From a virus: a stretch of DNA of 64,000 bases. Position numbers and translations under genes: made by a program. Below the pieces are notes generated by a model. The model did not search any database and was not told where the DNA came from. It saw only the letters and a program-made list of their open reading frames with translations. The DNA is taken from positions 1 through 64,000 of the IMG/VR virus record IMGVR_UViG_3300045988_132810; one strand, 5' to 3'. Of this stretch, positions 7,282 through 24,870 are shown in pieces. The first letter of the stretch is position 1. The number at the start of each line of letters is the position of its first letter.

Positions 7282-8811
7282 ATGGAACTTGAATTAACTA
7301 ATAGCCAGTCCGAAATGCTGGTAGTTGGATCATTTTATAAAGAGCCAACATTATATCTAACATATGGAACCTCAATTGTCCCAAAATATGATTTTTCGGA
7401 CAAGGCATGTGAGTTTTTTTATCAGTTATTTTCTGATTATTATGTTTCATATTCTGAAGATTTTACCGAATTGAAAATTAATACGTTCTGCAGCATGTCT
7501 AAAGAGCGTTTTAAACAATATAGACAGTATGGTGGATATAAGACAATTAAAGAATTAATGGCAATGAGCGACCCTCATGATATTAAGAATTATCTTTCAA
7601 TATTTAAGAAGTTTTCATTGCTAAGAGCTTTTAATGAGACTGGATATGATGTATCAAAAATTTTGGCAATTAAGAATTTCAATGCATTAACGCCAGATGA
7701 TATTTGTAGAATTGTTCGTGGCAGAATTGATAAGGTAGCTAATAAAGTACAAGCAATTGATGAACCTGTTGTTCTTACAGAAAACGCAGTTGCATGTATT
7801 GATCAATTCCTATGCATGCCATCTATGGGCGTTGCTGGGCCATGGCCATATCTTCAGAAGTATTATAGAGGATTGCTTCCCGGAAACGTTTTGATGACAG
7901 GAGCTTTGAGCAATAGCGGTAAGGGTAGAAATCTCGTTTATCTTATTGCGTATCTAGTCCTTGTTCAAAAGCAAAAAATTCTATTGCTTGCAAACGAAAT
8001 GTCGGCAGAGAGCATTAAATTGAATTTCTTAGTTACATGCATTAATTCTCCAGAGATTCAAGAGCTACATGGAATTAAAGATATTTATAAACCAGAAAGA
8101 GAAATTGCACTCGGATCATATAAAGATGATAACGGAAAGTACATTTATAGACAGATGGATGATAATGGCGTGTATACAGAAGATGAAGAGTCTTATAAAA
8201 AGAGAATTTATGAAACATCTTCTGAATATCGGAAGGTGCAACGAATTATGCAATGGGTTGAATCTGAAAGTAGTGGAAAATTCTTGTTTAAGAATATCGG
8301 CTCTTGCTATGAAGATGAAGTACTTGAAATGGAAATTAAAAAAGCCAATACAATTTATAAGTGTGATGGTGTAGCATATGATACGCTAAAATGCTCTGGC
8401 CTTGAGGATTTTGCAAAGCTCGCAGCAACAGCGACAAAAATCACAGAATGGATTCATGAAACAAAAATGTATTGCATTTGTACTTTTCAGCTAACAGATT
8501 CAGCGCATGACATTTCAATTGAAAATCTAAACTCGCAAGAGATTGCAAGTTCTAAGAGAATTATGCATGTTACTGACCAAATGCAAATGTGGAAGCATTT
8601 ATCAGCAGATGATAAGCAAAACTATGTATATGTCTGTGAAGATGATACTTGGGGAGAACCAATAGAACATGATTTAAGATATGATAAAAATTATGTTGGA
8701 TTAAGAATTGTAAAGAACAGAGTTGGTTCTAAGAATGATTTGATCTGCTTTGAAGTAGATATGGACGGAAATGTTTGGAAAGAAATTGGTGTGCTTAAGA
8801 AGAAAATGTAA
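7282..8811 (+). CDS. DnaB-like replicative DNA helicase
   Basis: ATG 7282 after GGAAG RBS; N-terminal DnaB-like region, P-loop GALSNSGKGRN, C-terminal RecA-like fold motifs. Confidence 0.55.
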   Translation: MELELTNSQSEMLVVGSFYKEPTLYLTYGTSIVPKYDFSDKACEFFYQLFSDYYVSYSEDFTELKINTFCSMSKERFKQYRQYGGYKTIKELMAMSDPHDIKNYLSIFKKFSLLRAFNETGYDVSKILAIKNFNALTPDDICRIVRGRIDKVANKVQAIDEPVVLTENAVACIDQFLCMPSMGVAGPWPYLQKYYRGLLPGNVLMTGALSNSGKGRNLVYLIAYLVLVQKQKILLLANEMSAESIKLNFLVTCINSPEIQELHGIKDIYKPEREIALGSYKDDNGKYIYRQMDDNGVYTEDEESYKKRIYETSSEYRKVQRIMQWVESESSGKFLFKNIGSCYEDEVLEMEIKKANTIYKCDGVAYDTLKCSGLEDFAKLAATATKITEWIHETKMYCICTFQLTDSAHDISIENLNSQEIASSKRIMHVTDQMQMWKHLSADDKQNYVYVCEDDTWGEPIEHDLRYDKNYVGLRIVKNRVGSKNDLICFEVDMDGNVWKEIGVLKKKM

Positions 8812-8902
8812 AGCCAACAAAGGTGAAATTCTTAGATATAGTCTTAAGATTGATAGTATTAATTAAATAATATTTAGCAATGTATTGATTTAATTATACG
8901 AA

Positions 8903-8936
8903 AACTCCCACTTATATAGTGGGAGTTATTTTTTTA
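8903..8936 (+). terminator. rho-independent terminator
   Basis: ACTCCCAC/GTGGGAGT stem followed by TTATTTTTTT. Confidence 0.8.
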
Positions 8937-8983
8937 TACAAAAGTAGCAAAATATAAACTACAGTTTTGTACAACTTGCTATA

Positions 8984-9011
8984 TTGACAAACCGCAGAAA
9001 TGTGATATACT
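8984..9011 (+). promoter_or_regulatory. sigma-70-type promoter with TGn extension
   Basis: TTGACA-16 nt-TATACT preceded by TGTGA. Confidence 0.6.
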
Positions 9012-9016
9012 GGCTA

Positions 9017-9032
9017 TAGTACAAAATTATAG
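9017..9032 (+). promoter_or_regulatory. conserved intergenic motif copy (TAGTACAAAATTATAG)
   Basis: 6 nt after the -10 and 39 nt upstream of ATG 9072. Confidence 0.6.
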
Positions 9033-9071
9033 TACATCAAGGCGACAAATTTATAAAGGAGCAATCAACAA

Positions 9072-9416
9072 ATGTCAAATGAATATAAGGATTGGCTCAA
9101 TGATCAAAAAGAGCAAAATGAAGTAATTTTTAATCAGCTTCGAAATGGAAAACATCCATTTATTAGTTTGGAAGAACTAGAATTTTTTATCCATTGTATT
9201 AACGATTTTGGTATAAATGGGTTGATTATTCAGCAAAGCTATGTTAATAATGGATTCTATCTTGGTGTGGATGACGCAACTATTAATAAGTGGATGGAAA
9301 AAGATTCGATGAATATTAGAGATTGCCACAAATGTGTCTATGAGGTTGGATGCAATGGCAATCCAGCAGGATGCACATCTTATAAGAGAGATGCGCCAGA
9401 TGGAGGATGTTATTAA
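9072..9416 (+). CDS. hypothetical protein
   Basis: 114-aa ORF after AAGGAG RBS. Confidence 0.55.
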   Translation: MSNEYKDWLNDQKEQNEVIFNQLRNGKHPFISLEELEFFIHCINDFGINGLIIQQSYVNNGFYLGVDDATINKWMEKDSMNIRDCHKCVYEVGCNGNPAGCTSYKRDAPDGGCY

Positions 9417-9417
9417 A

Positions 9418-9585
9418 ATGAATTTTGATAATCGGGTTGTGATTGTAAGTAATTATGCAACTGAAGCACTTAATAATGAACTGAGCTATTGGGGCGATCG
9501 TGGATTTAGGCTAGTCTCTACTGAAATGGCAGCGAATACATGTGGCGTTACAGTTATGTATCTATTTTTTACAAAAGAGGCGTAA
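9418..9585 (+). CDS. hypothetical small protein
   Basis: ATG 9418 (MNFDNRVV) 1 nt after the upstream stop; internal Met of ORF-track 9334..9585. Confidence 0.45.
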   Translation: MNFDNRVVIVSNYATEALNNELSYWGDRGFRLVSTEMAANTCGVTVMYLFFTKEA

Positions 9586-9590
9586 AATCA

Positions 9591-9791
9591 ATGGATCAAT
9601 GCGGGACATGCAAGCATTATATTGGTTGTGGAGATTGGAATTTATGTTGTGATATTCCACATCCGACTCCTAAAGAAAAAGAAATGGGGATTACTTTTAT
9701 ATTTGGGCATTTGTGTTATGAGGACACAGGTGCTTGTGACATGTACGAGCCGAAAGGAGCAAACTATGTTAATGAAAATTGCACATCATAA
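9591..9791 (+). CDS. hypothetical Cys-rich protein
   Basis: ATG 9591 (MDQCGTCKHY...); multiple CxxC-like pairs. Confidence 0.45.
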   Translation: MDQCGTCKHYIGCGDWNLCCDIPHPTPKEKEMGITFIFGHLCYEDTGACDMYEPKGANYVNENCTS

Positions 9792-10035
9792 TGATGGAAA
9801 GGAAAAGTTTCAATCACATACTTGTTATTTATTTAATGATTCTGATAGATATCATAATTTTGACTTAACAAATATTTATGGATATGGCGAAACAAAAGAA
9901 GAAGCTATAGAAAACCTAAAGAAAAAACTTGCATATTATTTTGACGAGCTTCATGCGCTAGAAGAGATGCTTTATGAAACAGATGTGCTCGACAACGATA
10001 TTGTTGAAGTTGATTGTTTAGGAAGAAAGATTTAG
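9766..10035 (+). CDS. hypothetical protein
   Basis: ATG 9766 (MLMKIAHH) 6 nt after AAGGAG RBS; overlaps the upstream gene end. Confidence 0.45.
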   Translation: MLMKIAHHNDGKEKFQSHTCYLFNDSDRYHNFDLTNIYGYGETKEEAIENLKKKLAYYFDELHALEEMLYETDVLDNDIVEVDCLGRKI

Positions 10036-10130
10036 TGTATGTGGTGGCAAGATGGAGATTGTATTTGTAACACGGTAGTAAAATTACTTGGATTACTTGC
10101 GAATAGTATGGCATATTTAAAAAGTGCCAC

Positions 10131-10159
10131 TTGACAAACAGAAATTGTTGTGATATAAT
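10131..10159 (+). promoter_or_regulatory. sigma-70-type promoter (consensus, TGn-extended)
   Basis: TTGACA-17 nt-TATAAT with TGTGA immediately upstream of the -10. Confidence 0.7.
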
Positions 10160-10820: not shown

Positions 10821-11558
10821 ATGAGCCAACTGATTGATATGACTAATTGGATTATGGCAGAGCATGGAGTGCCTGATAGTAAAATCACGGTACTTAAAAG
10901 AGTTGAAAACAACAAACATGGATCTACACGCTGGTTGTGTGAGTGCTCTTGTAGTGAACATAACAAATTTATTGCAATTGGTCAAGACATTAGGAATGGT
11001 AAAGTTAGATCTTGTGGATGTTTGCAAAAAGAAGCCACAAAAAAGATGGGGCAAAGCAGGCCAACAGAAAACAAACGAGATTTGTCTGGAAAGTTTGGAA
11101 TACTTTGGACAACAAACACTAATGATGAAGTGTATTTTGACCTAGAAGATTCAGAAGAAATTTTAAAACACAGTTGGTATTTGAGTGTAAAAGGTTATCC
11201 TACTTCACAGATTAATGGAAAACCAGTTAGGTTGCACCAATTTATTGGGTGTTATAACCACGACCATAAAAATAGGAATAAATTAGACAACCGAAAATCC
11301 AATTTAAGACCTTGTACTCAACAGGAAAACACAAGGAATAGAAGCAAGAACAAAAACAATAAATCTGGATTTACTGGAGTGTATTGGGATAAGCAATATT
11401 GTAAATGGGGCGCTCAAATTAAAGTCAAACAAAAGACAATTAAATTAGGAACATTTGATGATAAAATCGAAGCGCTTATCGCAAGATTAAAGGCCGAAAA
11501 AGAAATTTACAAAGAGTTTGCTCCACAAAGAGATTTGTTTGATGAATATAATATTTGA
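10821..11558 (+). CDS. free-standing HNH endonuclease with C-terminal AP2-type DNA-binding domain
   Basis: 245 aa; HQF..HDHKNRNKLDNRKSNLR..TQQEN (HNH_3-like) followed by SGFTGVYWDKQYCKWGAQIKVKQKTIKLGTF (AP2-like). Confidence 0.7.
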   Translation: MSQLIDMTNWIMAEHGVPDSKITVLKRVENNKHGSTRWLCECSCSEHNKFIAIGQDIRNGKVRSCGCLQKEATKKMGQSRPTENKRDLSGKFGILWTTNTNDEVYFDLEDSEEILKHSWYLSVKGYPTSQINGKPVRLHQFIGCYNHDHKNRNKLDNRKSNLRPCTQQENTRNRSKNKNNKSGFTGVYWDKQYCKWGAQIKVKQKTIKLGTFDDKIEALIARLKAEKEIYKEFAPQRDLFDEYNI

Positions 11559-11578
11559 TTTATAAGGAGATTGAGACT

Positions 11579-12232
11579 ATGACAAAAGAAACTTTGACTG
11601 TACATCGTGCTCTTGCAGAACTTAAGGTTATTGATTCACGCATCAATAATGCGATTTGTTCTGGTACGTTTGTGGTTGCGAATAAGCATTCTAATGAGAA
11701 GATTCATGGAGTGACCATTAATGAGTTTAAGAACAGCATGAAGTCAGATTTCCAGAAAGTGTCTGATCTGATTGCAAGACGTAATGCAATCAAGAAGGCG
11801 GTTGTTGCATCTAATGCAGTAACGAAGGTTAAGGTTGGTGACAACGAATACACAGTTGCTACCGCAATTGAGATGAAGAATCATGGGATGGAGTTCAAGA
11901 ACACATTCAAGAAGTGTCTTGAAGCTCAGTATGCTGTAGCAAAGAATGAGCTTGATAAGAACAGTGGTGATCCTCTTGAGAAGAGAGCAGAGAATTATGT
12001 TCTTAGTGTCATTCAGGCACAGCCGAAGGACTCTAAAATGGCTGTTGATTCGGAAGCGATGAAGAATCTTCGTGCTCAGTACATCAAGGATAACACTTAT
12101 GACATCATTGATCCTATTGGTGTCAAGGATGCCATTGAGCAGCTTGACAATGAGATTTCTAGTTTTATTACTGAAGTTGATGCGGCACTTTCGGTTAGTA
12201 ACGCACTAACTGTGCTTGATATCGAGTATTAA
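11579..12232 (+). CDS. hypothetical protein
   Basis: ATG 11579 (MTKETLTV) 10 nt after AAGGAG; 217 aa, predicted helical. Confidence 0.55.
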   Translation: MTKETLTVHRALAELKVIDSRINNAICSGTFVVANKHSNEKIHGVTINEFKNSMKSDFQKVSDLIARRNAIKKAVVASNAVTKVKVGDNEYTVATAIEMKNHGMEFKNTFKKCLEAQYAVAKNELDKNSGDPLEKRAENYVLSVIQAQPKDSKMAVDSEAMKNLRAQYIKDNTYDIIDPIGVKDAIEQLDNEISSFITEVDAALSVSNALTVLDIEY

Positions 12233-12757: not shown

Positions 12758-13525
12758 TTTCAGAAAGTAATTCTTTTTAAGAGATTCATACAAAGTGCTT
12801 AAGAATTACCTAATTTAAAATGTTAGGTGGATTGTATGAAAAAATGGGAAAGATTTACTCGGCAAGAGATTGAACAATTTGTAAAAGATAGTTTTAGTTA
12901 TGCTCAATTAGCAAAAAAGTGTGGATATAAAGGCGGGAGTAGTTTACAACAAATAAAGCAAATGGTAGAACAGTTTGAGCTAGACGTATCACATTTTACT
13001 GGGCAAGGGTGGCTTGCAGGAAGAACATACGAAAGTAAAAAATATATTCAGTTTAACGAATATATAAAAAGCAAATATGTCCAGACTAATAAACTTCGAA
13101 AAAAATTATTAAAAGAAGGACTTAAAGAGCATGTATGTGAATGTTGTTTAAATTCTATGTGGAATGGAGTGCCAATACCACTTGAAGTTCATCATATAGA
13201 CGGTGATAAAAACAACAATGATTTGGAAAATCTTCAATTATTGTGTCCAAATTGTCATGCATTAACTGATACTTATCGAGGAAGAAATACGAGAAGACAC
13301 AAGGAGAAAACATCAAATTGAAATCTCTTGTAGGAGCACCAAGTCAGGAAACTACTTGCGTGAATGACCCCTAAACGGCGAACAGTTCTGAGAACGCCGT
13401 ACCAATCCAACACTTGTTGGAAGTGCGTAGAGACTATACAGGGTCAACCTAAGTCGAAAGATATGGTTAAGACATAGTCCAGCCCACAACGTAGAAATAC
13501 GGCCATGGTGACATGGAGTGGGATG
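12758..13525 (+). mobile_element. group I intron (768 nt) in the tRNA-Leu(UAA) anticodon loop, carrying an HNH ORF
   Basis: Follows exon U34 and ends in G. Core-like elements are GTGCGTAGAGACTATACA (13423-13440, R-like) and AAGACATAGTCC (13469-13480, S-like). The ORF sits in the 5' part. Confidence 0.75.
12836..13321 (+). CDS. intron-encoded HNH homing endonuclease
   Basis: ATG 12836 after AGGTGG RBS; EVHHIDGDKNNNDLENLQLLCPNCH motif. Confidence 0.85.
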   Translation: MKKWERFTRQEIEQFVKDSFSYAQLAKKCGYKGGSSLQQIKQMVEQFELDVSHFTGQGWLAGRTYESKKYIQFNEYIKSKYVQTNKLRKKLLKEGLKEHVCECCLNSMWNGVPIPLEVHHIDGDKNNNDLENLQLLCPNCHALTDTYRGRNTRRHKEKTSN

Positions 13526-13635
13526 AAAATCTGCTGGTAGTAATACCGTGCGGGAGCAAAGCCCGTCTCCGCTACCACGCGAACAAATGGAATGCGTTAA
13601 GTAATGTGTGGCTGACTGACCTAAGAGTCAAATAT

Positions 13636-13709
13636 GCAAGCGTAACTCAGTTGGATAGAGTGCCTCGCTACGAACGAGGAAGACATGGGTTCAAATCCTA
13701 TCGTTTGCA
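13636..13709 (+). tRNA. tRNA-Arg(ACG): tRNA-Arg(ACG)
   Basis: Acceptor GCAAGCG/CGTTTGC, D arm ACTC..GAGT, anticodon arm CCTCG-CTACGAA-CGAGG, T arm ATGGG-TTCAAAT-CCTAT. Confidence 0.85.
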
Positions 13710-13720
13710 TTCTTTAATAT

Positions 13721-13805
13721 GCCCGAATGATGGAATTGGTAGACATGCAGCTCTCAAAAAGCTGTGCCGCAAGGCGTGTGAGATCGTGGCTCACTTCGGG
13801 TACCA
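13721..13805 (+). tRNA. tRNA-Leu(CAA): tRNA-Leu(CAA), CCA encoded
   Basis: Acceptor GCCCGAA/TTCGGGT, anticodon arm CAGCT-CTCAAAA-AGCTG, long variable arm, T arm GTGAG-ATCGTGG-CTCAC (atypical T-loop), A-CCA. Confidence 0.8.
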
Positions 13806-13971
13806 AATGGTAGTAAGTAGTGCAAATTTTATATCAGATAACCAGTAAGGATAAAATCCGTTGCAGGATTTGCTCCCTGTATCGAGAAAGATTAAATTTG
13901 AACTCGCTGAAAGTAGCTGGTGAATGGGTATAAAATGGAGTCATGCACGGCTCCGCTTGCTATCATTACCA
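13806..13971 (+). ncRNA. structured RNA X1 (unknown family): 12-bp terminal helix, NCCA 3' end, starts directly after the tRNA-Leu CCA
   Basis: Terminal helix AATGGTAGTAAG (13806-17) pairs with CTTGCTATCATT (13956-67), then A-CCA. Inner helices are GTGCA/TGCAC (13820-24/13944-48) and ATTTTATA/TATAAAAT (13826-33/13929-36). Homologous to X2 with compensatory changes. Confidence 0.6.
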
Positions 13972-14024
13972 CAGGTCTTTGTGGCAACTGTACGACCTTA
14001 TAAACTACTAAAGTTGCAACATAT

Positions 14025-14099
14025 TGCTGGCGGGAGGTTGGCATCTCAAGCGGCCTCATAAATCGTTTTAATCTGGTTCAATTCCAGAGTCAGCAACCA
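14025..14099 (+). tRNA. tRNA-(CAU): tRNA with CAU anticodon (Met or Ile2 type), weak anticodon stem
   Basis: Acceptor TGCTGGC/GTCAGCA, T arm TCTGG-TTCAATT-CCAGA, A-CCA; loop CTCATAA. The anticodon stem GCGGC/ATCGT has two G-U pairs and one mismatch. Confidence 0.6.
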
Positions 14100-14108
14100 A
14101 ATAAATAT

Positions 14109-14191
14109 GGGCAGGTAGCGAATCGGCAAACGCGGCGGACTGTAAATCCGTTCCTTCGGGGTAGTGGGCTCGACACCCACCCTGCCCACCA
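14109..14191 (+). tRNA. tRNA-Tyr(GUA): tRNA-Tyr(GUA), copy 1
   Basis: Acceptor GGGCAGG/CCTGCCC, anticodon arm GCGGA-CTGTAAA-TCCGT, long variable arm, T arm GTGGG-CTCGACA-CCCAC (atypical loop), A-CCA. Confidence 0.8.
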
Positions 14192-14294
14192 AATGATGGT
14201 GAGTAGCGTACAATGTCAGATTTTAGTGAAGGTAGAACCAGCAACTTTTAAATCTGTTAGGGGTCATACGCGGCCTCGCTTGCTATCATTGCCA
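14192..14294 (+). ncRNA. structured RNA X2 (same family as X1), starts directly after the tRNA-Tyr CCA
   Basis: Terminal helix AATGATGGTGAG (14192-203) pairs with CTTGCTATCATT (14279-90), then G-CCA. Inner helices are GCGTA/TACGC (14206-10/14267-71) and CAGATTT/AAATCTG (14217-23/14250-56). Confidence 0.6.
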
Positions 14295-14374
14295 AGGGAT
14301 AAGTTGCTTAAACTGTTCGAACGAACCCTACAAATCGGCAGAAACGGTGACAGCTCGGAAAGACGGCAAAACAT

Positions 14375-14450
14375 GGGGCGGTCATACAGCGGTCTAGTAT
14401 GTCGGACTTATAATCCGTTCACGAGTGTTCAAATCACTCTCGTCCCACCA
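14375..14450 (+). tRNA. tRNA-Ile(UAU): tRNA-Ile(UAU), CCA encoded
   Basis: 76-nt cloverleaf: acceptor GGGGCGG/TCGTCCC, D arm ATAC..GTAT, anticodon loop CT-TAT-AA, T arm GAGTG-TTCAAAT-CACTC. Confidence 0.8.
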
Positions 14451-14459
14451 AATTACATA

Positions 14460-14475
14460 TAATACAAAATTATAG
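14460..14475 (+). promoter_or_regulatory. conserved intergenic motif copy (TAATACAAAATTATAG)
   Basis: Between tRNA-Ile and ORF 14504, inside the tRNA array. Confidence 0.6.
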
Positions 14476-14503
14476 CTTTCAACACATGGAAGGACGACAA
14501 AGA

Positions 14504-15250
14504 ATGAATGACAAAATTGACGATATTGGAATTTATACTGATATACATGAAAGTGGTAAAAGAAATAAGGATGGTAATAAAATGTATTATGCCACCTGTA
14601 AAGTGTGTGGAACAATAGTAGAAAAGAAATTGGCCAATATCAAGCGAAGTAATAAAATTTGTTGTCACAAAACACAAAAAAACAATTTAAATAAGATTAA
14701 TGACATGCCAGTTGGCTGGATCAATAAATCAGATTTAAATAAAAAAATTTATGATACGTGGAAAGGAATGTGGAATAGAACAACTGAAAAATGTTGGGGG
14801 AAATACCCTACTTACATAGGGACAACAGTTGATGATTCATGGAGATTGCTTAGTAATTTTGTAAATGATATCAAAGAATTGCCCGGATATGAAGAGTGGG
14901 CAAATTCTAAAAAAAGAATGATGATGCTAGATAAAGACACATTGGTTGATGGGAATAAACACTATAGCAAAGAAACTTGTTGTTTTATCACAGCTTTAGA
15001 ATCGAGCAAAGACGTGAATAAAAGGCATCCTGATAATACTTTGAAAGCAAATGCAGCTAGTGTTAAGAAGTGTTCTATCCCAGTAAAAATAATGAATAAG
15101 CAAACTTTCGAAGAAAAGATTTTCCCTTCACTTCGAGAAGCGTGTAGAGTAATGGGATGGAATGAAGGTAATGCTTGGAAGGTAGTAAGTGATAAGTATC
15201 CATATAACAGTTCTGTAGAAGGATGGACAATAGAACAACTAAATGAATAA
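14504..15250 (+). CDS. putative free-standing homing-endonuclease-like DNA-binding protein
   Basis: ATG 14504 after GAAGGA RBS. N-terminal zinc-finger-like CKVCGT..CCHK resembles the N-terminus of the 10821 HNH-AP2 protein. C-terminal FPSLREACRVMGWNEGNAWKVV looks like a nuclease-associated HTH module; no clear catalytic motif seen. Confidence 0.4.
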   Translation: MNDKIDDIGIYTDIHESGKRNKDGNKMYYATCKVCGTIVEKKLANIKRSNKICCHKTQKNNLNKINDMPVGWINKSDLNKKIYDTWKGMWNRTTEKCWGKYPTYIGTTVDDSWRLLSNFVNDIKELPGYEEWANSKKRMMMLDKDTLVDGNKHYSKETCCFITALESSKDVNKRHPDNTLKANAASVKKCSIPVKIMNKQTFEEKIFPSLREACRVMGWNEGNAWKVVSDKYPYNSSVEGWTIEQLNE

Positions 15251-15282
15251 ACGCAATAAAGAAAATGTTGAAACATAAATGA

Positions 15283-15361
15283 AACACTGAGGTCGGAAAG
15301 GCTCCCGACGCTCCTCTTATAGGGAATCTGAGATGCAGGATACGCCGCCCTGCCAGTGTTT
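15283..15361 (+). ncRNA. degenerate tRNA-like cloverleaf (loop CT-TAT-AG), probable tRNA pseudogene
   Basis: Acceptor-like AACACTG/CAGTGTT, arm GTCGG..CCGAC, arm GCAGG-ATACGCCGC-CCTGC; poor anticodon stem, no CCA, no T-loop consensus. Confidence 0.4.
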
Positions 15362-15371
15362 AAAATTATAT

Positions 15372-15442
15372 TATCGTATAGCTTAATGGGAAAGCGCCCT
15401 CACTATCAGAGGGAGATACTTGTTCGATTCAAGTTGCGTTAG
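15372..15442 (+). tRNA. tRNA with non-canonical anticodon loop ACTATCA (formally UAU, Ile-like)
   Basis: Acceptor TATCGTA/TGCGTTA (one U-U mismatch), D arm GCTT..AAGC, anticodon stem CCCTC/GAGGG, T arm ACTTG-TTCGATT-CAAGT; C33 and C37 are unusual. Confidence 0.55.
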
Positions 15443-15520
15443 AAAAATGTGGATGCTATGCACGTCGCGCGCCGCCACCAAACAAAGCATAGCTGGCGCT
15501 GTGGAAAGACACAGAGATCT

Positions 15521-15605
15521 GCAGGAGTCCCATAGTGGTCGATTGGAGCGGTTTTGTAAGCCGCCAGCTTTGCTCACGTCGGTTCGAATCCGACCTCCTG
15601 CTCCA
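15521..15605 (+). tRNA. tRNA-Tyr(GUA): tRNA-Tyr(GUA), copy 2, CCA encoded
   Basis: Acceptor GCAGGAG/CTCCTGC, anticodon arm GCGGT-TTGTAAG-GCCGC, variable arm AGC-TTT-GCT, T arm GTCGG-TTCGAAT-CCGAC, T-CCA. Confidence 0.75.
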
Positions 15606-15613
15606 CATTATAT

Positions 15614-15729
15614 GCAAGTAAGGAAGAATTGGTCTTCTCTCATTTAACAAAGCTGAGATACAAAAAGATCGCTACTTTGGAAACGTTCGCTTTGGGGAAA
15701 TGTGTGTTCGAATCACACTACTTGCTCCA
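15614..15729 (+). ncRNA. 116-nt tRNA-like gene with expanded anticodon/variable region
   Basis: Canonical acceptor GCAAGTA/TACTTGC plus T-CCA, D arm GAAG-AATTGGT-CTTC, T arm GTGTG-TTCGAAT-CACAC. The middle part is TCTCA-(11-nt loop TTTAACAAAGC)-TGAGA followed by a 43-nt insert. Confidence 0.5.
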
Positions 15730-15853
15730 GCGAGGTAACGTCACTTCCATCACGTAGCACAGCGGATAGCAAATAGTGAAAGAGATATGTGCACCTAGGC
15801 TCTTGTTTGAACTATTTGGTTATGATAAAGAAGGATTGGAAACCTCGCTTTAT

Positions 15854-15943
15854 GAGAGCGTAACTCAGTTGGTAGAGTTTTATAGCGTGAAGGGATATGC
15901 TATTGAATACCCTTAGTCGCCAGTTCGAGTCTGGCCGCTCTCA
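15854..15943 (+). ncRNA. 90-nt tRNA-like gene with the anticodon arm replaced by a possible pseudoknot
   Basis: Canonical acceptor GAGAGCG/CGCTCTC, D arm ACTC-AGTTGGTA-GAGT, T arm GCCAG-TTCGAGT-CTGGC. The 38-nt centre has interleaved pairings ATAGC/GCTAT and AAGGG/CCCTT. Confidence 0.5.
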
Positions 15944-15970
15944 TTAAAATATATATTAGGAGAAATAGTT

Positions 15971-16225
15971 ATGGCAATTAAAATAATTAGTCAAGGAAAA
16001 GATTTTGATAATCCTATATTTACCCAGCGATGCCCTAAATGCGATTGCGTATTTACCTATCAGAATGAAGATGTTCATAGAGAGCCTACTGGTAGATATT
16101 ATAGAGATTTTGAAGAGTATTTTATTAAAATGGACGATTGCGACAGACAAGAAATTGCAGTATCTATTGAATGTCCTTGGTGCCATAAAAAGATTCATGT
16201 AAAAGATGAATATAAAAAAATATGA
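15971..16225 (+). CDS. small zinc-ribbon protein inside the tRNA array
   Basis: 84 aa after AGGAG RBS; CPKCDC...CPWCH. Confidence 0.55.
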   Translation: MAIKIISQGKDFDNPIFTQRCPKCDCVFTYQNEDVHREPTGRYYRDFEEYFIKMDDCDRQEIAVSIECPWCHKKIHVKDEYKKI

Positions 16226-16349
16226 AAGATGTAATTGCTCAATTTTAATGGAGTATTGCATGCAATAGAATTTATGGATGAATGTTATCGTCCGACAAGT
16301 TAATTGGTTCTTGTCGAAGTCAAAAACCATTATTTTATATAACTAGTAT

Positions 16350-16424
16350 GGGCCTGTAATTCAATAGTAGAATATACGCCTTTTAAGCGTACTACGGACG
16401 GAGCGTAACCGCCCAGACCCACCA
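16350..16424 (+). tRNA. tRNA-Lys(UUU): tRNA-Lys(UUU), CCA encoded
   Basis: Acceptor GGGCCTG/CAGACCC (one C-A mismatch), D arm ATTC..GAAT, anticodon arm TACGC-CTTTTAA-GCGTA, T arm GG(A)CGG-AGCGTAA-CCGCC (atypical). Confidence 0.7.
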
Positions 16425-16520
16425 TTTATTCTCTGTAATTTAGTCCACTTGACTCCGGTACAATCTTCTGCTCTGTTCCCTGTTTATGCAGGTTAGATGA
16501 ATAAAGACAGAGCTATTTAT

Positions 16521-16596
16521 GGCTGGCGGGAGGTTGGCATCTCAACTTGGCTCATAACCAAGCTCAATTCAGTTCGATTCTGAAGCTCAGCAACCA
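16521..16596 (+). tRNA. tRNA-(CAU): second CAU-anticodon tRNA, paralogue of 14025..14099, imperfect acceptor
   Basis: 5' half is identical to the first copy (GCTGGCGGGAGGTTGGCATCTCAA). Good anticodon arm CTTGG-CTCATAA-CCAAG and T arm TTCAG-TTCGATT-CTGAA. The acceptor has a 1-72 mismatch and a bulged C. Confidence 0.55.
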
Positions 16597-16599
16597 AAT

Positions 16600-16673
16600 A
16601 GCGGATTAGTGTAATAGTAGCACGACAGACTTTGGATCTGTAGGTAGGGGAGCATAGCCTCTATCCGCTGCCA
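16600..16673 (+). tRNA. tRNA-Gln(UUG): tRNA-Gln(UUG), CCA encoded
   Basis: Acceptor AGCGGAT/ATCCGCT, anticodon arm ACAGA-CTTTGGA-TCTGT, T arm AGGGG-AGCATAG-CCTCT (atypical loop), G-CCA. Confidence 0.75.
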
Positions 16674-16704
16674 TGTAAATATTAATTTTTAGGAGGAATA
16701 TATT

Positions 16705-16830
16705 ATGAACACAAGAACTGCACTACATTATGAGAATCGTATTGCGAAGCTAAAGGCCAAGAGTGAAGTTGTAAATGCAAACCTGATTAATAAAGCACAG
16801 AGGGAGCTTAACAAGCTGACACAAAAGTAA
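16705..16830 (+). CDS. 41-aa hypothetical protein between tRNA genes
   Basis: ATG 16705 8 nt after AGGAGG; MNTRTALHYENRIAKLKAKSEVVNANLINKAQRELNKLTQK; below the ORF-track length cutoff. Confidence 0.45.
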   Translation: MNTRTALHYENRIAKLKAKSEVVNANLINKAQRELNKLTQK

Positions 16831-16836
16831 GAATAT

Positions 16837-16911
16837 GCGGTAGTAGCTCAATGGTAGAGCATCAGATTTCCAATCTGATTGTTGCGAGATCGTGCCTCGT
16901 CTACCGCTCCA
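16837..16911 (+). tRNA. tRNA-Gly(UCC): tRNA-Gly(UCC), CCA encoded
   Basis: Acceptor GCGGTAG/CTACCGC, D arm GCTC..GAGC, anticodon arm TCAGA-TTTCCAA-TCTGA, T arm GCGAG-ATCGTGC-CTCGT (atypical loop). Confidence 0.8.
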
Positions 16912-16942
16912 TTGGCGTTGACCATTATTGGCAGCGACCATA

Positions 16943-16977
16943 GGGGGCCTAGAGCTTTCTAGGCTCCCATTTTTTTG
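16943..16977 (+). terminator. rho-independent terminator closing the tRNA array
   Basis: GGGGGCCTAGA..TCTAGGCTCCC hairpin followed by TTTTTTT. Confidence 0.8.
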
Positions 16978-16991
16978 TGCAATTTGCACAA

Positions 16992-18909: not shown

Positions 18910-20013
18910 ATGATTTACCTAGATAACGCTGCTACATCTCCAATTTGTGAAGCCGCAAAGAATATTATCCTTGACAATCTTGACGAATATTACAATCCAA
19001 ACAGTTCATATGAGGATGCTCGTGGAGTAAAGATTAAGGTCGAGGAAGCACGTGAAAAGATTGCGGCACTAATTGGAGCACAACCTGACGAGATTTACTT
19101 TACTTCTGGTGGATCTGAAGCAAATTCATGGGTTTCAAATCATGATTTTACACTAGCATCTAACATTGAGCATCATTCTATTGATCCAGACTATAAATTC
19201 AAGGTCGATTATAGAGGAATGGTTGATATAGAGAAATTTGAAAAAAGAGTAAATGAATTGCAGAATAATTATTTCGGTATTAGTCCGGGTATTGCTTCAT
19301 GTATGATGGTAAATAATGAACTTGGAGTTATTGAGCCAATTGAAGAACTAGCAAAGATTGCTCATGATAATCATATGTTGTTCCATACAGATGCAGTTCA
19401 GGCATTCCCTCATATGAAAATTAATGTAGAAGAGCTTGGCGTAGATATGTTGTCATGCTCTGCTCATAAGTTTGGTGGGATTAAAGGATGCGGATTCCTT
19501 TATATCAAAGATGGAATTCATATTCATCCTTTAATTAATGGTGGAAGCCAAGAAAGAGGAATCAGAGGTGGCACAACTAATGTCCTTGGTGTCTTGGCTA
19601 TGGCTGCTGCGCTAGAAGATACGACAACCCATATGAATGGAAATAATGCAAAAATTGCACGTTTATCCAAGAAGATTAAGGATAATTTATTGAATGTAAA
19701 AGGTGTCACAATTAATGGGGCAACAGATAAAAAGCAGTATTTAGACAGTATTTTGAACTTTAGAATTGATGGTGTACATGGTTCAGATGTTGTTGCGATG
19801 GCTGACGAATTTGGGATTGCTATTAGTGCTGGTTCAGCTTGCAATGAAGGTGATGCCATTCCATCTCATGTGCTAAAAGCAATTGGTTTGTCTGACGAAG
19901 AGGCACTAAGTAGCATTCGTGTATCTCTTGGAAGATATAATACAGAAGAAGAAATTGATTATGCTTGTGTGATTCTTCCAAAGGTCATTGAAAGATTGAG
20001 ATCACTTAATTGA
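18910..20013 (+). CDS. cysteine desulfurase (class V aminotransferase, NifS/IscS-like)
   Basis: IYLDNAATSP N-terminus; PLP-lysine context SAHKFGGIKGCGFLYIK; 367 aa. Confidence 0.85.
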   Translation: MIYLDNAATSPICEAAKNIILDNLDEYYNPNSSYEDARGVKIKVEEAREKIAALIGAQPDEIYFTSGGSEANSWVSNHDFTLASNIEHHSIDPDYKFKVDYRGMVDIEKFEKRVNELQNNYFGISPGIASCMMVNNELGVIEPIEELAKIAHDNHMLFHTDAVQAFPHMKINVEELGVDMLSCSAHKFGGIKGCGFLYIKDGIHIHPLINGGSQERGIRGGTTNVLGVLAMAAALEDTTTHMNGNNAKIARLSKKIKDNLLNVKGVTINGATDKKQYLDSILNFRIDGVHGSDVVAMADEFGIAISAGSACNEGDAIPSHVLKAIGLSDEEALSSIRVSLGRYNTEEEIDYACVILPKVIERLRSLN

Positions 20014-20029
20014 TAGTACAAAATTATAG
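20014..20029 (+). promoter_or_regulatory. conserved intergenic motif copy (TAGTACAAAATTATAG)
   Basis: Starts 1 nt after the desulfurase stop codon; 14 nt upstream of ATG 20044. Confidence 0.6.
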
Positions 20030-20043
20030 AAAGGATTTAATAA

Positions 20044-21207
20044 ATGATTATCAATAATAAAAGAGCGCTTGCATACATCCAGCATGTAACCAACATTCGT
20101 CCTATTGATGGTGCAGATAATATTGAACAGTGTAATGTACTTGGATGGAATCTCATTTGTAAGAAGGGTGAATTCCATGAAGGCGATCCTTGTGTTTATA
20201 TTGAGATTGACTCAAAAGTCCCTGAGAGAGAGGAATTTGAATTCCTTCGTGCAAAAGGTTTTAAGGTCAAGACAATGAAGCTTGGTAAGTTTAATTGTAT
20301 CAGTCAGGGCCTTGCCATGCCACAGTCTGCATTTAAAGAGTTGGCAGGGCTTTCAGAGGGGACGGATGTAACCGACATTCTTGGAATTAAGTATTCCGTA
20401 CAAGAGGACAATGCTCGTAAGAGCAATGGCGATCCTAATGCAAAATATAAATCTATGGCCGCTCGTCACCAGAAAATCTTTAAAAAGAAGTGGGCACGTT
20501 GGATGATGCGTCGTTCTTGGGGGCGTAAGGTTATGTTTTTCTTCTTCGGCAAGAAGAAGGATAACCCTCGTGGTTTTCCTTCATTTGTTTCAAAGACAGA
20601 TGAAGAGCGTGTAGAAAATCAGCCTTGGCGTATTAGTGATGGCAAGACTTATATTGCTACAGAAAAGCTAGATGGCACTTCTTGTACTTATGCACTTGAA
20701 CGAAAAGGGCGTAATAAGTTTGAATTTTATGTTTGTTCTCGTAATGTAAGACAGCAGGACGAGAAGCAAGAGTGTTACCATGACCATAACATCTATTGGG
20801 ATTTGGCGTTCAAGTACAATATCGAACAGCATTTGAAGGATATCCTGAATCAATTTCCTAAGCTTAAATGGGTATGCATTCAAGGCGAGGGCGTAGGCTC
20901 TGTTCAGGGCAATCCACTGAAGCTCAAGGAAGATGATTTATATGTTTTTAACTTTAAAGATTCTGAAAGGGGAAGATATAATTCTATTATTGGTAGAGCT
21001 ATTATTGAAAAGATGGGCATGAAATGGGTTCCCATTCTTGGAAAAGTTCAAATGCCAAACACTATGGAGGAACTTAAGGCGCTTGCAACTGGCAAGTCCA
21101 AGGTGAATCCAGATGTAATGCGTGAAGGTATTGTGTACCGTTCTTTGGATGGTAGTGATAGTTTCAAAAATGTCAGCCGCGAGTATTTGCTAAAACATAA
21201 TAATTAA
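20044..21207 (+). CDS. RNA ligase, DRB0094 (Rnl5)-like: N-terminal OB-like domain plus nucleotidyltransferase domain
   Basis: Adenylylation motif I ATEKLDGTS; N-terminal IDGADNIE..VLGW..GEF..GD..VYIEID pattern typical of this family. Confidence 0.75.
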   Translation: MIINNKRALAYIQHVTNIRPIDGADNIEQCNVLGWNLICKKGEFHEGDPCVYIEIDSKVPEREEFEFLRAKGFKVKTMKLGKFNCISQGLAMPQSAFKELAGLSEGTDVTDILGIKYSVQEDNARKSNGDPNAKYKSMAARHQKIFKKKWARWMMRRSWGRKVMFFFFGKKKDNPRGFPSFVSKTDEERVENQPWRISDGKTYIATEKLDGTSCTYALERKGRNKFEFYVCSRNVRQQDEKQECYHDHNIYWDLAFKYNIEQHLKDILNQFPKLKWVCIQGEGVGSVQGNPLKLKEDDLYVFNFKDSERGRYNSIIGRAIIEKMGMKWVPILGKVQMPNTMEELKALATGKSKVNPDVMREGIVYRSLDGSDSFKNVSREYLLKHNN

Positions 21208-21218
21208 AGGAGAATGAG

Positions 21219-21461
21219 ATGAAAGATTGTATTGAATTAATTGTTGGATTTATCATCTGGTGCATTATTAAACCTATCATTATTTTCGGTGCTGGTTGGT
21301 TTGGCGGTTGGATCCTGATGAATATTGTTGGTGGCGCAGTTGCAACTGGACTGAATACTTTGTTTGAAACTACTAGATTTATGCCAGACATAATTCCTGT
21401 TGTGTGCGGTACATTAGCGGTTATTGGAAATTTTTTTAAGACGACTGTAAGTAAAGAGTGA
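21219..21461 (+). CDS. small integral membrane protein
   Basis: 80 aa, three hydrophobic segments; AAGGAG RBS. Confidence 0.55.
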   Translation: MKDCIELIVGFIIWCIIKPIIIFGAGWFGGWILMNIVGGAVATGLNTLFETTRFMPDIIPVVCGTLAVIGNFFKTTVSKE

Positions 21462-21468
21462 GAATATA

Positions 21469-22284
21469 ATGAACTATCATTCAGATAATTGGATAATGGA
21501 CGGTGTTCGAGAGCATTATAACGAAGCTCTCGAATACTTTCCAGAAGATAGAATTGTGGGAATCTTCTATCAAGGTAGTGGTAATTATGGACTTGATTAT
21601 GAAGAGTCAGATGTTGATACTAAACTTATTGTAGCGCCGACATTTAAGGATATTGCAATGAACAAAAATCCCGTTAGTACAACTCATATTCGAACCAATG
21701 ATGAGCATACAGATTGGAAGGATATTAGACTTTATATCCAGACATTTAGGAAGCAAAATTTAAACTTCTTAGAAATCTTGTTCACTCCTTATAAAATCAT
21801 CAATCCCATGTATGAAAATCAATGGAATAGACTTATTAATGCCAGAGAAGATATTGCACATTATTCTCCAGTTCAAGCAATTAAGTCTATGCGAGGTATT
21901 GCTAAAGAAAAGTATTTTGCAATGGAGCATCATTATCCATCTCGTATGAAATTGATTAATAAGTTTGGATATGATCCGAAACAACTACATCATCTATTGC
22001 GAGTAGAGGAGTATATTGCAAGATATATCAATCATGTGCCATATGAAAAATGTTTGATTTCTGAAAGTCCAGAATATTTAGTAGAGGTCAAGAAAGGCTT
22101 ATATAATCTAGAAGACGCACGAGCACACGCTAATGACGCGATCGACCATATTGATTTACTATGTAATGATTTCTTAAAAAATGAATACACAGTGGATGCA
22201 AAAATTGATGAGCTGTTAAATAGCGTACAGTACGAGATTATGAAGATTGCAATTAAGAAAGAGATCGGTGATGAAAATGAATAG
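21469..22284 (+). CDS. Pol-beta superfamily nucleotidyltransferase (RNA-ligase-associated type)
   Basis: GSGNYGLDYEESDVDTK (G-S...D-x-D NTase motif); position next to the RNA ligase and kinase-HD genes. Confidence 0.65.
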   Translation: MNYHSDNWIMDGVREHYNEALEYFPEDRIVGIFYQGSGNYGLDYEESDVDTKLIVAPTFKDIAMNKNPVSTTHIRTNDEHTDWKDIRLYIQTFRKQNLNFLEILFTPYKIINPMYENQWNRLINAREDIAHYSPVQAIKSMRGIAKEKYFAMEHHYPSRMKLINKFGYDPKQLHHLLRVEEYIARYINHVPYEKCLISESPEYLVEVKKGLYNLEDARAHANDAIDHIDLLCNDFLKNEYTVDAKIDELLNSVQYEIMKIAIKKEIGDENE

Positions 22285-23158: not shown

Positions 23159-23178
23159 TAAAATATTAAATTAACCTC

Positions 23179-23207
23179 TTGACAATACAAAATTATTGAC
23201 ATATAAT
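23179..23207 (+). promoter_or_regulatory. sigma-70-type promoter embedding the motif
   Basis: TTGACA-ATACAAAATTATTGACA-TATAAT. Confidence 0.75.
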
Positions 23208-23235
23208 GTCCACATAGAAAGGAGAGTGAATATTT

Positions 23236-24688: not shown

Positions 24689-24690
24689 AA

Positions 24691-24870
24691 GTGTATAAGA
24701 GAAATTGTGTTGAAGTTAGTGAGGATCTATGTAAAAAATGTTTTATTAAGATCGCCAAGCCAAGCAAGAAAGAGATTAAGCATATTGTACTAACAGACTA
24801 TAATGCGACATGTGACAATTGCGGGCGAAAGGGGCCAATTGTTGATTATATTAATGATGAAGATTATTAA
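24691..24870 (+). CDS. 59-aa zinc-ribbon-like protein
   Basis: GTG 24691 after AAGGAGAG; CKKC...CDNCG. Confidence 0.4.
   Translation: MYKRNCVEVSEDLCKKCFIKIAKPSKKEIKHIVLTDYNATCDNCGRKGPIVDYINDEDY

Follow-up and report, generated by a model that had tools for sequence, protein, structure and literature searches.

The window, the whole 64-kb stretch of viral DNA analysed here, carries a tRNA operon on the plus strand (13635-16978) with 11 tRNAs called by ARAGORN, one further tRNA found by Rfam only, and two additional elements, X1 and X2, which lie on this strand with all their parts. The operon ends at a strong intrinsic terminator (16943-16968) followed by a T tract, the only strong terminator there, and since both elements are internal to the operon, their release must come by processing. 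X1 (13806-13971, 166 nt) follows tRNA-Leu(CAA) (13721-13805) and X2 (14192-14294, 103 nt) follows tRNA-Tyr(GTA) (14109-14191). Both tRNAs encode their CCA, and the ends assigned to them by ARAGORN, 13805 and 14191, place each element directly after the upstream CCA, in agreement with the original prediction made from the letters of this DNA. The extents of X1 and X2 are based on sequence, MFE folding and R1, the model of the family, which scored 38.3 bits for X1 (its 3' part) and 33.2 bits for X2. Folding of X1 gave an MFE of -51.7 kcal/mol (z = -4.4), and X2 folded with z = -2.0.

The two ends of each element pair in a terminal helix of 12 bp, termed P1. The 5' strand of X1, AAUGGUAGUAAG (13806-13817), pairs with 13956-13967, and the 5' strand of X2, AAUGAUGGUGAG (14192-14203), pairs with 14279-14290, a pairing also supported by covariation. 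The 3' strand, CUUGCUAUCAUU, is identical in X1 and X2, while the 5' strands differ at three positions, each exchanging an A-U for a G-U pair. A discriminator and CCA complete the 3' end, A-CCA in X1 (13968-13971) and G-CCA in X2 (G at 14291, CCA at 14292-14294). Both elements thus have tRNA-like ends, paired and then extended by discriminator and CCA, but with 12 continuous base pairs and not 7. Behind the first strand of P1 come U13 and A14 (13818-13819 in X1, where U13 is able to pair with G 13955), followed by the 5' strand of a second helix, P2, which is GUGCA in X1 (13820-13824) and GCGUA in X2 (14206-14210). Its partners lie in the loop of a hairpin, UGCAC at 13944-13948 and UACGC at 14267-14271, such that two double compensatory changes distinguish the elements. 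That hairpin, P3, reads GGAGUC-AUGCAC-GGCUCC in X1 (13937-13954, loop 13943-13948) and GGGGUC-AUACGC-GGCCUC in X2 (14260-14277), and is supported by MFE folding and covariation. In both elements the P3 loop pairs with nt 15-19/20, giving an H-type pseudoknot in which a hairpin loop is joined to a distal strand with covariation support. The terminal helix, the NCCA tail and the changes in helix 2 are as originally predicted, and a pseudoknot does exist. Its parts had been assigned differently: the blocks GGNGUC and GGCYYC, described as unpaired, in fact pair together as the 6-bp hairpin P3, and helix 2 is formed by the P3 loop with nt 15-19, which puts the knot between P2 and P3.

Between the first strand of P2 and the P3 hairpin lies a variable insert. 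In X1 it is of type A and 111 nt long (13826-13936), closed by a 10-bp A/U-rich helix (13826-13835/13927-13936) found by MFE folding and RNAalifold; the insert had been noticed originally, at about 95 nt and with an 8-bp A/U helix. It had also been regarded as extra to X1, but X2 has a variable region of its own (type D, 48 nt, 14212-14259), with a closing helix at 14217-14223/14250-14256 by MFE. The X1 insert is more aptly seen as belonging to a set of at least four unrelated, structured and interchangeable inserts that occupy one fixed site of nearly identical cores. Across the family, insert length ranges from 3 to 116 nt, with 3-4 nt at that site in the minimal forms. Type A is present in many other loci, and among 10 variants aligned with RNAalifold it shows compensatory changes in both its closing and its inner helices.

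Pattern scans recovered 57 copies of the element, representing 28 distinct cores. The common anatomy, from 5' to 3', is a 12-bp helix strand, U-A, a strand of 5-6 nt, the insert, a 6-bp hairpin, a G, the 3' helix strand, a purine and CCA. Minimal forms of 58-59 nt occur in unrelated phage tRNA arrays and have P1 sequences unlike those of X1 and X2; in the locus L305, P1 is AUCCAUACGAAG/CUUCGUAUGGAU, wholly different from the P1 of the window. A short ORF starting at the AUG of the AAUG... motif was considered and rejected, as it is not conserved in the minimal forms. True copies paired at 10-12 of the 12 P1 positions, compared with 2-6 of 12 in chance matches to the patterns, and with filters off the R1 model scored true copies at 50-62 bits against noise of at most 12 bits.

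Covariation across the 28 distinct cores supports all three helices. Pairing is kept in 95.6% of cells, as high a value being reached by none of 500 shuffles, and changes on both sides of the pair are seen at 17 of 25 pairs, likewise unmatched by 500 shuffles; shifting the partner strand by 1-3 columns reduces pairing to 29-47%. The homologues therefore preserve the pairings proposed for X1 and X2. Twelve of the 13 P1 pairs covary across the family, and in P2 both partners have changed at 4 of the 6 pairs. P3 contributes one pair with double changes (23-36, occurring as AU, GC, CG and GU) and one with a one-sided change, its other four pairs being invariant. P1 measures 12 bp in 28/28 cores, with its 12-nt 3' strand fixed by the search patterns, and four relatives have a 1-nt bulge; counted with an invariant U-G (U13-G39), the terminal helix has 13 bp. 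U13-A14 is identical in 28/28 cores, where UAG was imposed by one later search pattern and a filter and left free by the three earlier patterns, and the apparent invariance of head positions and the 12-nt length of the P1 3' strand are in part an ascertainment effect of the patterns. The discriminator is A in 27 cores and G in one. All 57 filtered copies end in R-CCA, the CCA being demanded by the pattern, and seven related copies found where it was not demanded end in ACUA, AUCA, ACCG or ACC+U before the next tRNA begins. These natural tail variants suggest that the CCA matters but is repairable.

X1 and X2 belong to a structured RNA family with no Rfam match, as had been supposed: a search of Rfam 15 at gathering and at permissive thresholds (E <= 10) returned no family over 13806-13971 or 14192-14294. 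That they are not tRNAs was borne out as well, neither element being called as a cloverleaf by ARAGORN or matched by RF00005 even at E <= 10. The tmRNA possibility was rejected, as ARAGORN reports none, pair 3-70 is U-A, C-G or A-U and not G3-U70, and a tag would not fit into the 58-nt forms. A blastn search of 50,697 cultured phage genomes with the 1.2-kb region, the L048 and L305 arrays and the 58-nt core yielded tRNA matches only and no X at this sensitivity, and a GC-rich pattern scan of genome contigs gave, among the matches listed, none that passed the P1/P2 filter. As far as the available text of that catalogue goes, the family may lie among the unnamed candidates of a collection of 10,006 virus csRNAs (PMC10690425).

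The junction with the upstream tRNA is exact. In 55 of the 57 copies, 0 nt separate the element from the tRNA called by ARAGORN, with 10 tRNA types represented upstream; between tRNAs in the X-bearing loci, 0 of 410 gaps are shorter than 2 nt. A tRNA downstream of X, where there is one, begins after 2-3 nt, a normal tRNA-tRNA spacing, and in three loci (L048, L301, L310) X lies between two tRNAs. Copies are always oriented as the neighbouring tRNAs are, and this strict co-orientation, together with the many G-U pairs, argues that RNA rather than DNA is the acting form. In the close relatives L054, L057 and L060, X1 is exactly missing and tRNA-ACCA joins the same downstream flank directly; because of this clean absence, single copies of X are dispensable. 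Homologues of X2 are retained in these three relatives, and L063 carries a 75-nt deletion form.

We tentatively propose, with somewhat less than even confidence, that X is a small phage RNA produced from the tRNA operon, an acceptor-arm mimic that is cut out most likely by RNase P and serves as a decoy or dedicated substrate for proteins acting on tRNA ends. Judging from its anatomy and gene context, release, maturation and role may be as follows. RNase P would see X as a tRNA-like substrate through its 3' RCCA and a helix as long as the acceptor plus T stem stack, a likeness in length (12 bp) that the original prediction had drawn correctly. The sequence does hold the stacked helix of about 12 bp and the 3' RCCA of a minihelix-type RNase P substrate, and position -1 (A) would be unable to pair with the discriminator, which is consistent with such a substrate. 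One cut at the tRNA-CCA|X junction would generate both the CCA-OH end of the upstream tRNA and the 5' end of X, and the 3' RCCA would be matured in the manner of a tRNA. RNase Z is less likely than RNase P to be responsible, because an encoded CCA is a known anti-determinant of the bacterial enzyme. The product would be a stable rod displaying a tRNA acceptor end to cellular and phage proteins, with the conserved pseudoknot placed where the T-loop/elbow would be and the variable insert as an optional extra domain on the X scaffold. Stacking of P3 on P1 would put the end of the helical stack 19-24 bp from the CCA and not 12, so that elbow mimicry is a geometric guess. As to role, the choice we make with modest confidence is that X would compete, as a decoy, for the proteins by which acceptor ends of tRNAs are read or modified, or would serve them as a dedicated substrate.

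Some features count against a likeness to tRNAs and RNase P substrates, as P1 is A/U-rich and position +1 varies (A, U, C, G), while most bacterial tRNAs have G1-C72. The first three P1 pairs vary freely and no acceptor-stem identity element is conserved, which makes charging by a stem-reading synthetase appear unlikely.

The alternative that survives best, which we nevertheless consider unlikely, is that X is a processing cassette only, a minimal RNase P landing pad that gives the upstream tRNA an exact CCA-OH, with the excised RNA functionless. Only through the strict 0-nt junction is X connected directly with the maturing of the upstream tRNA, copies are cleanly gained and lost among relatives, X stands behind many tRNA types, and a helix with RCCA is what model RNase P substrates require. 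A plain hairpin with CCA would suffice for this purpose, yet the covarying P2/P3 pseudoknot is kept across unrelated phages, and structured inserts with their own covariation are retained. Where X lies between tRNAs (L048, L301, L310), the next tRNA could do the job, and the 3' end of X is spaced from the following tRNA as tRNA ends are. Even if X were only a processing cassette, it would represent a new way of setting tRNA 3' ends.

A more specific form of the decoy reading places X in the conflict between phage and host. In the available text of one report, a bacterial immune nuclease cuts tRNA CCA tails and takes synthetic mimics of acceptor stem plus tail as substrates (PMC12851939), and a tail nuclease that accepts acceptor mimics would make the decoy idea feasible. 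X may then be a counter-defence decoy or bait, an abundant mimic of acceptor stem and CCA made along with the phage tRNAs, which absorbs host effectors that attack the tail or acceptor (Cas12a3-like nucleases, tail-modifying toxins) or passes the damage to phage repair enzymes, the inserts tuning the partner; in this particular form we regard the idea as rather improbable.

Still more doubtful is the view that X works for the RNA-end enzymes encoded by the phage itself, as their cofactor or as a substrate dedicated to them; it might, for example, be the bait by which repair is recruited or activated, or be modified by these enzymes. The genes in question, for an RNA ligase, a kinase, a nucleotidyltransferase and a Thg1-like enzyme, are found in the same orientation at a distance of 6-17 kb downstream. 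The ligase is of the NgrRnl type, a nick-sealing (Rnl5-type) enzyme (match to 5cot, E = 5e-43), and its neighbours include a Pnkp1-like kinase, an RlaP-like nucleotidyltransferase, an HD protein and the Thg1-like enzyme, a 3'-5' polymerase; the recessed 5' end and 3' overhang of X have the geometry used by Thg1-like enzymes. In L048, a distant locus with a minimal form, an RNA ligase, an AAA_33 kinase and a metallophosphoesterase are encoded upstream of the array. This suggests a link between X and RNA-repair genes in the two lineages checked, the other minimal-form loci being too short, but RNA-repair genes are often found near phage tRNA arrays regardless, and tRNA repair alone explains their presence fully. 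The exact RNA ligase of the window occurs on 91 contigs, the NCBI name being that of a Caudoviricetes MAG, and a protein search with it found only relatives of at least 96% identity. By DnaE, the nearest cultured relative infects [Clostridium] innocuum; in the 50 kb viewed of this relative, Clostridium phage Amboise, there is just one tRNA, not an array.

That X is an HDV-like ribozyme cleaving itself at the 5' end, with a cyclic phosphate left on the released tRNA for the phage kinase/phosphatase to heal, is very improbable. The 0-nt junction, a pseudoknot with conserved nucleotides and nearby RNA end-healing genes are compatible with it, but Rfam gave no ribozyme match (HDV-like, hammerhead, twister, pistol, hatchet) even at E <= 10, the conserved nucleotides lie a 12-bp helix away from the junction, leaving no likely active site there as judged from secondary structure, the RCCA tail and exact helix length are left unexplained, and a cyclic phosphate on the tRNA would prevent charging. 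It is equally hard to credit that X is no RNA device at all, whether a decayed tRNA or pseudogene, a DNA inverted repeat (a recombination or homing-endonuclease site, or attC-like) or a retron-like msr with an a1/a2 stem and UAG branch G: its terminal inverted repeat, its cassette-like presence and absence, the several HNH endonuclease genes in the array and a UAG after the stem (invariant within the limits of the search patterns) that resembles a retron branch context are outweighed by compensatory changes in three helices, the many G-U pairs, which would be C-A mismatches on the other strand, the constant abutment to a tRNA in the same orientation, the lack of D, anticodon and T arms, the absence of a reverse transcriptase among the scanned ORFs of the 64-kb window, and 58-nt forms too small for an msd.

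Among known systems, the phage T4 RNAs RNAC and RNAD (species 1 and 2) are like X in being small stable RNAs of a phage tRNA cluster that share a precursor transcript with tRNAs (PMC2330249). RNAD in particular starts 1 nt past the tRNA-Arg CCA, and the last letters of its gene are ...CACCA. Neither RNA has sequence or architecture in common with X: the ends of RNAD form no 12-bp helix, and the RNAC fold includes a hairpin resembling a T arm. Homology was rejected, as R1 has no match in the T4 region (L046) and the folds differ. No role has been assigned to the T4 species 1 and 2 RNAs (PMC3014915), and the X family offers a tractable case of this old problem, with a compact 58-nt core, clear covariation, an exact tRNA junction, a tRNA-like tail and a very common phage lineage. 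The genomic niche of X is shared by skipping-rope, which Rfam places 1 kb downstream in the window, and by ROOL, present in the tRNA array of L305, the locus with a minimal X; both are orphan RNAs of phage tRNA arrays with unknown function (PMC5737381). Their structures and that of GOLLD are unrelated to X, and they have neither a fusion to a tRNA end nor a CCA tail. The bacterial Y RNA YrlA is described as a tRNA mimic in the available text of PMC4201824. D and T arms are still present in YrlA, an RNA linked to Ro60, whereas X has neither arm; no Ro60-like (TROVE) gene was found within the 64-kb window, and the L305 array encodes a phrog_850 'RNA-binding protein' (DUF2828/DUF7788).

The tRNA-like structures (TLSs) of plant viruses likewise have a terminal CCA and contain pseudoknots, but their pseudoknot lies within the acceptor arm and they keep an anticodon-like arm, which X does not have. 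In MALAT1 mascRNA, the tRNA-pre-miRNA of murine gammaherpesvirus 68 and bacterial tRNA trailer sRNAs, a tRNA nuclease sets the end of an RNA joined to a tRNA or tRNA-like unit. There the signal comes from the tRNA-like part, on the 3' side of which RNase Z makes its cut, whereas X itself resembles an RNase P substrate and has its own CCA. The tRNA acceptor/T-stem minihelix, a model substrate of RNase P and the CCA-adding enzyme, shares with X the 12-bp helix, the purine discriminator and the single-stranded CCA; X differs in that its helix is uninterrupted and its cap is a conserved pseudoknot and not a 7-nt T loop. Should X indeed pass for a tRNA end with host or phage enzymes, the conflict over tRNAs between phages and bacteria would gain a layer made of RNA, and X would count as a modular RNA scaffold of natural origin. 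In the engineered tRNA scaffold, a stable frame processed as a tRNA carries a foreign structured RNA at one permissive site; X is by comparison natural, and its frame would be an acceptor-arm mimic with a pseudoknot and not a full tRNA.

X1 (13806-13971) begins at the base directly after the encoded CCA of tRNA-Leu(CAA), which ends at 13805, and X2 (14192-14294) at the base directly after tRNA-Tyr(GTA), which ends at 14191 (both + strand, ARAGORN). The 5' strand of the terminal helix, P1, is AAUGGUAGUAAG in X1 and AAUGAUGGUGAG in X2, with three differences that are each A-U versus G-U against the common 3' partner strand, CUUGCUAUCAUU, and the tail that follows is A-CCA in X1 and G-CCA in X2. 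The second helix, P2, is GUGCA/UGCAC in X1 versus GCGUA/UACGC in X2. In all of these sequence statements, from the tRNA abutment and P1 strands to the NCCA ends and the changes in helix 2, the original prediction holds. The blocks GGNGUC and GGCYYC, which it had described as unpaired, in fact pair together as a 6-bp hairpin, P3, and P2 is the P3 loop paired with nt 15-19/20. In this way, P2 and P3 form a pseudoknot with each other. An invariant U13-G39 pair can lengthen P1 to 13 bp. Single-sequence folding gave z = -4.4 for X1 and z = -2.0 for X2. Neither element was called a tRNA or tmRNA by ARAGORN or Rfam, in agreement with the claim that they are not tRNAs, and the suggested Rfam search returned no family over X1 or X2, even at E <= 10.

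Relatives were sought with four pattern scans, the hits of which were then filtered on P1 and P2 pairing. The first searched viral contigs for the P1 3' strand plus NCCA, leaving the entire head (the conserved pseudoknot part beyond P1, with UAG, P2 and P3) free, the second and third used the P3 region plus N13-CCA, and the fourth covered metagenomes with an insert of 8-38 nt permitted. After filtering, 57 copies were left, comprising 47 distinct sequences and 28 distinct cores (the element with its variable insert removed). The majority lie on 145-166-kb contigs of a single lineage, that of the window, and ten or so occur in unrelated tRNA arrays (L048, L082, L301, L305, L309-L311, L315 and others) as minimal forms of 58-59 nt, such as UCAUCAUAUGGC-UA-GCGCAU-UUA-GGGGUC-AUGCGC-GGCCCC-G-GCUAUAUGAUGA-A-CCA in L048. 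P1 of the minimal forms shares no sequence with X1 or X2, yet 10-12 of its 12 positions pair, against just 2-6 in pattern matches that arise by chance in GC-rich contigs. Because the patterns and filter demanded UAG, GGNGUC, A....C, GGC..C-G, a 12-nt 3' strand and, for the majority of the scans, CCA, the apparent invariance of all these positions in distant members is partly ascertainment; UAG and C32 were left free in the scan that found L048 and L082. The sole departure from the conserved head that was seen in relatives is an X2-type copy (L062, 2014-2116, +) with GGGAUC in place of GGGGUC in P3, which breaks one otherwise invariant pair.

In an alignment of the 28 cores (insert taken out, 55 columns), standard pairs fill 95.6% of cells and two-sided changes occur in 17 of the 25 pairs, values matched by none of 500 shuffles, and sliding the 3' partner by 1-3 columns lowers pairing to 29-47%. 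Covariation was found in 12 of 13 pairs of P1 and 4 of 6 pairs of P2; within P3, one pair appears as AU, GC, CG and GU, one changes one-sidedly and four are constant. The many G-U pairs and the strict co-orientation with tRNAs point to structure in + strand RNA, not to a repeat at the DNA level. With filters off, a covariance model of the core (R1) gave 50-62 bits for true copies and no more than 12 bits for all else, and in the window it matched X1 and X2 only. The pairings are kept in homologues from other phages, the outcome that the original prediction called for. With no Rfam match and with relatives that keep these pairings in unrelated phage arrays, the view that X is an unrecognised family is sustained, and its standing as a real, uncatalogued RNA family is well supported; a large catalogue of virus RNAs (PMC10690425) may include it as an unnamed candidate.

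The segment between the P2 5' strand and P3 measures 3-4 nt in minimal forms and 25-116 nt in the others. At least four unrelated inserts sit on near-identical cores: type A (about 111 nt, seen in X1), which contains helices of its own that show compensatory changes, type B (about 70 nt), type C (about 63 nt) and type D (48 nt, seen in X2, with a 20-nt deletion form in L063). Since near-identical cores hold unrelated structured inserts, the core is a frame with one permissive site for interchangeable structured domains.

When ARAGORN was run over every member locus, 55 of the 57 copies began 0 nt past the CCA of a predicted tRNA, confirming the head-to-tail fusion to tRNA 3' ends, and the upstream tRNAs were of ten types: Tyr, Leu, Asn, Gly, Thr(AGU), Thr(GGU), Ser, Trp, Phe and Val. 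Of the two exceptions, one is at the edge of its locus and the other (L311, 12245-12300, -) follows only a tRNA 3' half (T arm, acceptor 3' strand and CCA) right behind an ORF end, which suggests that the tRNA gene is interrupted or truncated; a tRNA-Sec-like match lies nearby (13399-13485, -; RF01852, 47.9 bits). Gaps of less than 2 nt were found in 0 of 410 tRNA-tRNA spacings in member loci, and a tRNA closely 3' of X is spaced by 2-3 nt, as is normal for tRNAs. By these counts, the 3' end of X acts like a tRNA end, and its 5' end is, uniquely, joined without a gap to the CCA before it. Clean empty sites in the close relatives L054, L057 and L060, where tRNA-ACCA is joined straight to the flank found after X1 in the window, indicate that X is a discrete cassette with ACCA at both borders. 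A tail-free scan yielded seven copies ending in ACUA, AUCA, ACCG, or ACC+U followed immediately by the next tRNA, so that CCA is the usual tail but has exceptions; for ACC+U, trimming and the addition of an A would be required.

In the operon of the window, ARAGORN places 11 + strand tRNA genes from 13635 to 16911, and Rfam adds a tRNA that ARAGORN missed, at 16350-16421 (+; 43.5 bits). The sole strong terminator in the region is an intrinsic one past the last tRNA (16943-16968), which places X1 and X2 inside a polycistronic tRNA operon, and we infer that separate X1 and X2 RNAs are obtainable through processing only. A near-consensus promoter lies 3' of this terminator. The spacers 3' of X1 (13972-14024, +) and X2 (14295-14374, +) belong to a few conserved types that recur in relatives with or without X (CAGGUCUUUGUGG... 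and AGGGAUAAGUUG... are examples), contain self-complementary stretches and could be additional processing signals or small RNAs. Other non-coding gaps in the array lie at 15606-15852, 15945-16349 and 16674-16836. A full-length skipping-rope RNA lies inside the operon at 15282-15361 (+; RF02924, 77.9 bits, E = 3e-17), between an HNH-like ORF (14486-15250; phrog_2081/953) and tRNA-Ile(TAT) at 15371. Directly before tRNA-Arg, the segment 12233-13634 (+) carries an HNH endonuclease ORF (12827-13321) with non-coding flanks of 594 nt and 313 nt. The 3' flank (13322-13634) has higher G+C, a folding z = -2.9 and an end right at tRNA-Arg, and a weak group I intron match (13315-13504; 18 bits, E = 0.08) includes P7/P8-like strings such as AGACAUAGUCC. 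The segment may represent a group I intron, or an RNA derived from one, with a homing endonuclease gene; no gene interrupted by it was found.

The window is from a siphovirus-like phage of an anaerobe, with tail genes (Dit, tape measure), a DnaE-type polymerase, the best cultured match of which is [Clostridium] innocuum phage Amboise (53% identity), a split anaerobic NrdD and an NAD-dependent ligase. Downstream of the tRNA array lies a dense tRNA/RNA-end toolkit (18910-31477, +): a NifS-like cysteine desulfurase (18910-20013), an RNA ligase matching Naegleria NgrRnl (20044-21207; PDB 5cot, E = 5e-43), which is a ligase of the duplex nick-sealing type, a weakly matched RlaP-like nucleotidyltransferase with no PDB relative found (21469-22284), a Pnkp1-like polynucleotide kinase (22247-23158), an HD protein (24889-25659), a Thg1-like 3'-5' polymerase (30638-31477) and RecJ. 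Identical copies of the RNA ligase sequence are found on 91 contigs, and its near-identical relatives number in the thousands. In the distant L048, an RNA ligase C-terminus, an AAA_33 kinase and a metallophosphoesterase lie directly upstream of the array; as these are just two lineages, a specific link between X and RNA-end genes cannot be claimed. Split-looking genes at 39040-47166 (+), in which introns or inteins are likely, comprise DnaE (39995-42325), preceded immediately by a LAGLIDADG ORF (39040-40017) and followed by a separate HHH_6-domain ORF (42530-43552), and NrdD in two ORFs (44593-45903 and 46042-47166). This phage of about 150 kb also has three genes of the tyrosine-recombinase/integrase type and one of the xanthine/uracil permease family (593-2556, 49159-50412, 51929-53071, +).

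The features read by bacterial RNase P are the 12-bp stack of acceptor and T stems, the 3' RCCA and the elbow. X has a helix of 12 bp, a purine followed by CCA and a structured cap starting exactly at the T-loop position, and the A at position -1 is unable to pair with the discriminator (A or G). RNase P could cut at the tRNA-CCA/X junction, and one such cut would both finish the upstream tRNA 3' end and make the X 5' end. Encoded CCA inhibits RNase Z in bacteria, which makes this enzyme unlikely for X release. Biogenesis by tRNA processing is plausible. The best-supported idea for the released RNA is a mimic of the tRNA acceptor end, since unrelated phages conserve both the pseudoknot and the tRNA-like tail, this tail is either retained or repairable and the phage invests in tRNA-end enzymes. 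In minimal forms only U-A joins P1 to P2 and 3 nt join P2 to P3, so that the three helices cannot all stack as one rod, a geometric reservation on any likeness to the elbow. Some immune effectors act against tRNA tails and take acceptor-stem-plus-tail mimics as substrates (PMC12851939), which makes a decoy role feasible, if speculative.

Phage tRNA arrays gather orphan structured RNAs such as skipping-rope, for which an association with particular nearby proteins has been reported, and ROOL (PMC5737381). The L305 array, which carries a minimal X, has a ROOL RNA cut by the locus end (11242-11722, -; RF03087, 251.8 bits), suppressor-type tRNAs (CUA and UUA anticodons), and a phrog_850 "RNA-binding protein" of 537 aa (DUF2828/DUF7788; 8520-10133, -). 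Like the skipping-rope of the window and this ROOL, X is an orphan structured RNA of phage tRNA arrays, but it is physically fused to tRNAs. It would work like the minihelix substrates of tRNA enzymes and the tRNA-linked mascRNA, without membership in any described family. The closest analogues are T4 RNAC and RNAD, of unknown role (PMC3014915, PMC2330249), which share its niche and kind of precursor; RNAD starts 1 nt past a tRNA CCA and ends in CACCA. Homology was rejected, as R1 finds no match in the T4 region and the folds differ. In total, X is best described as belonging with the small stable RNAs of phage tRNA clusters and with tRNA mimics.
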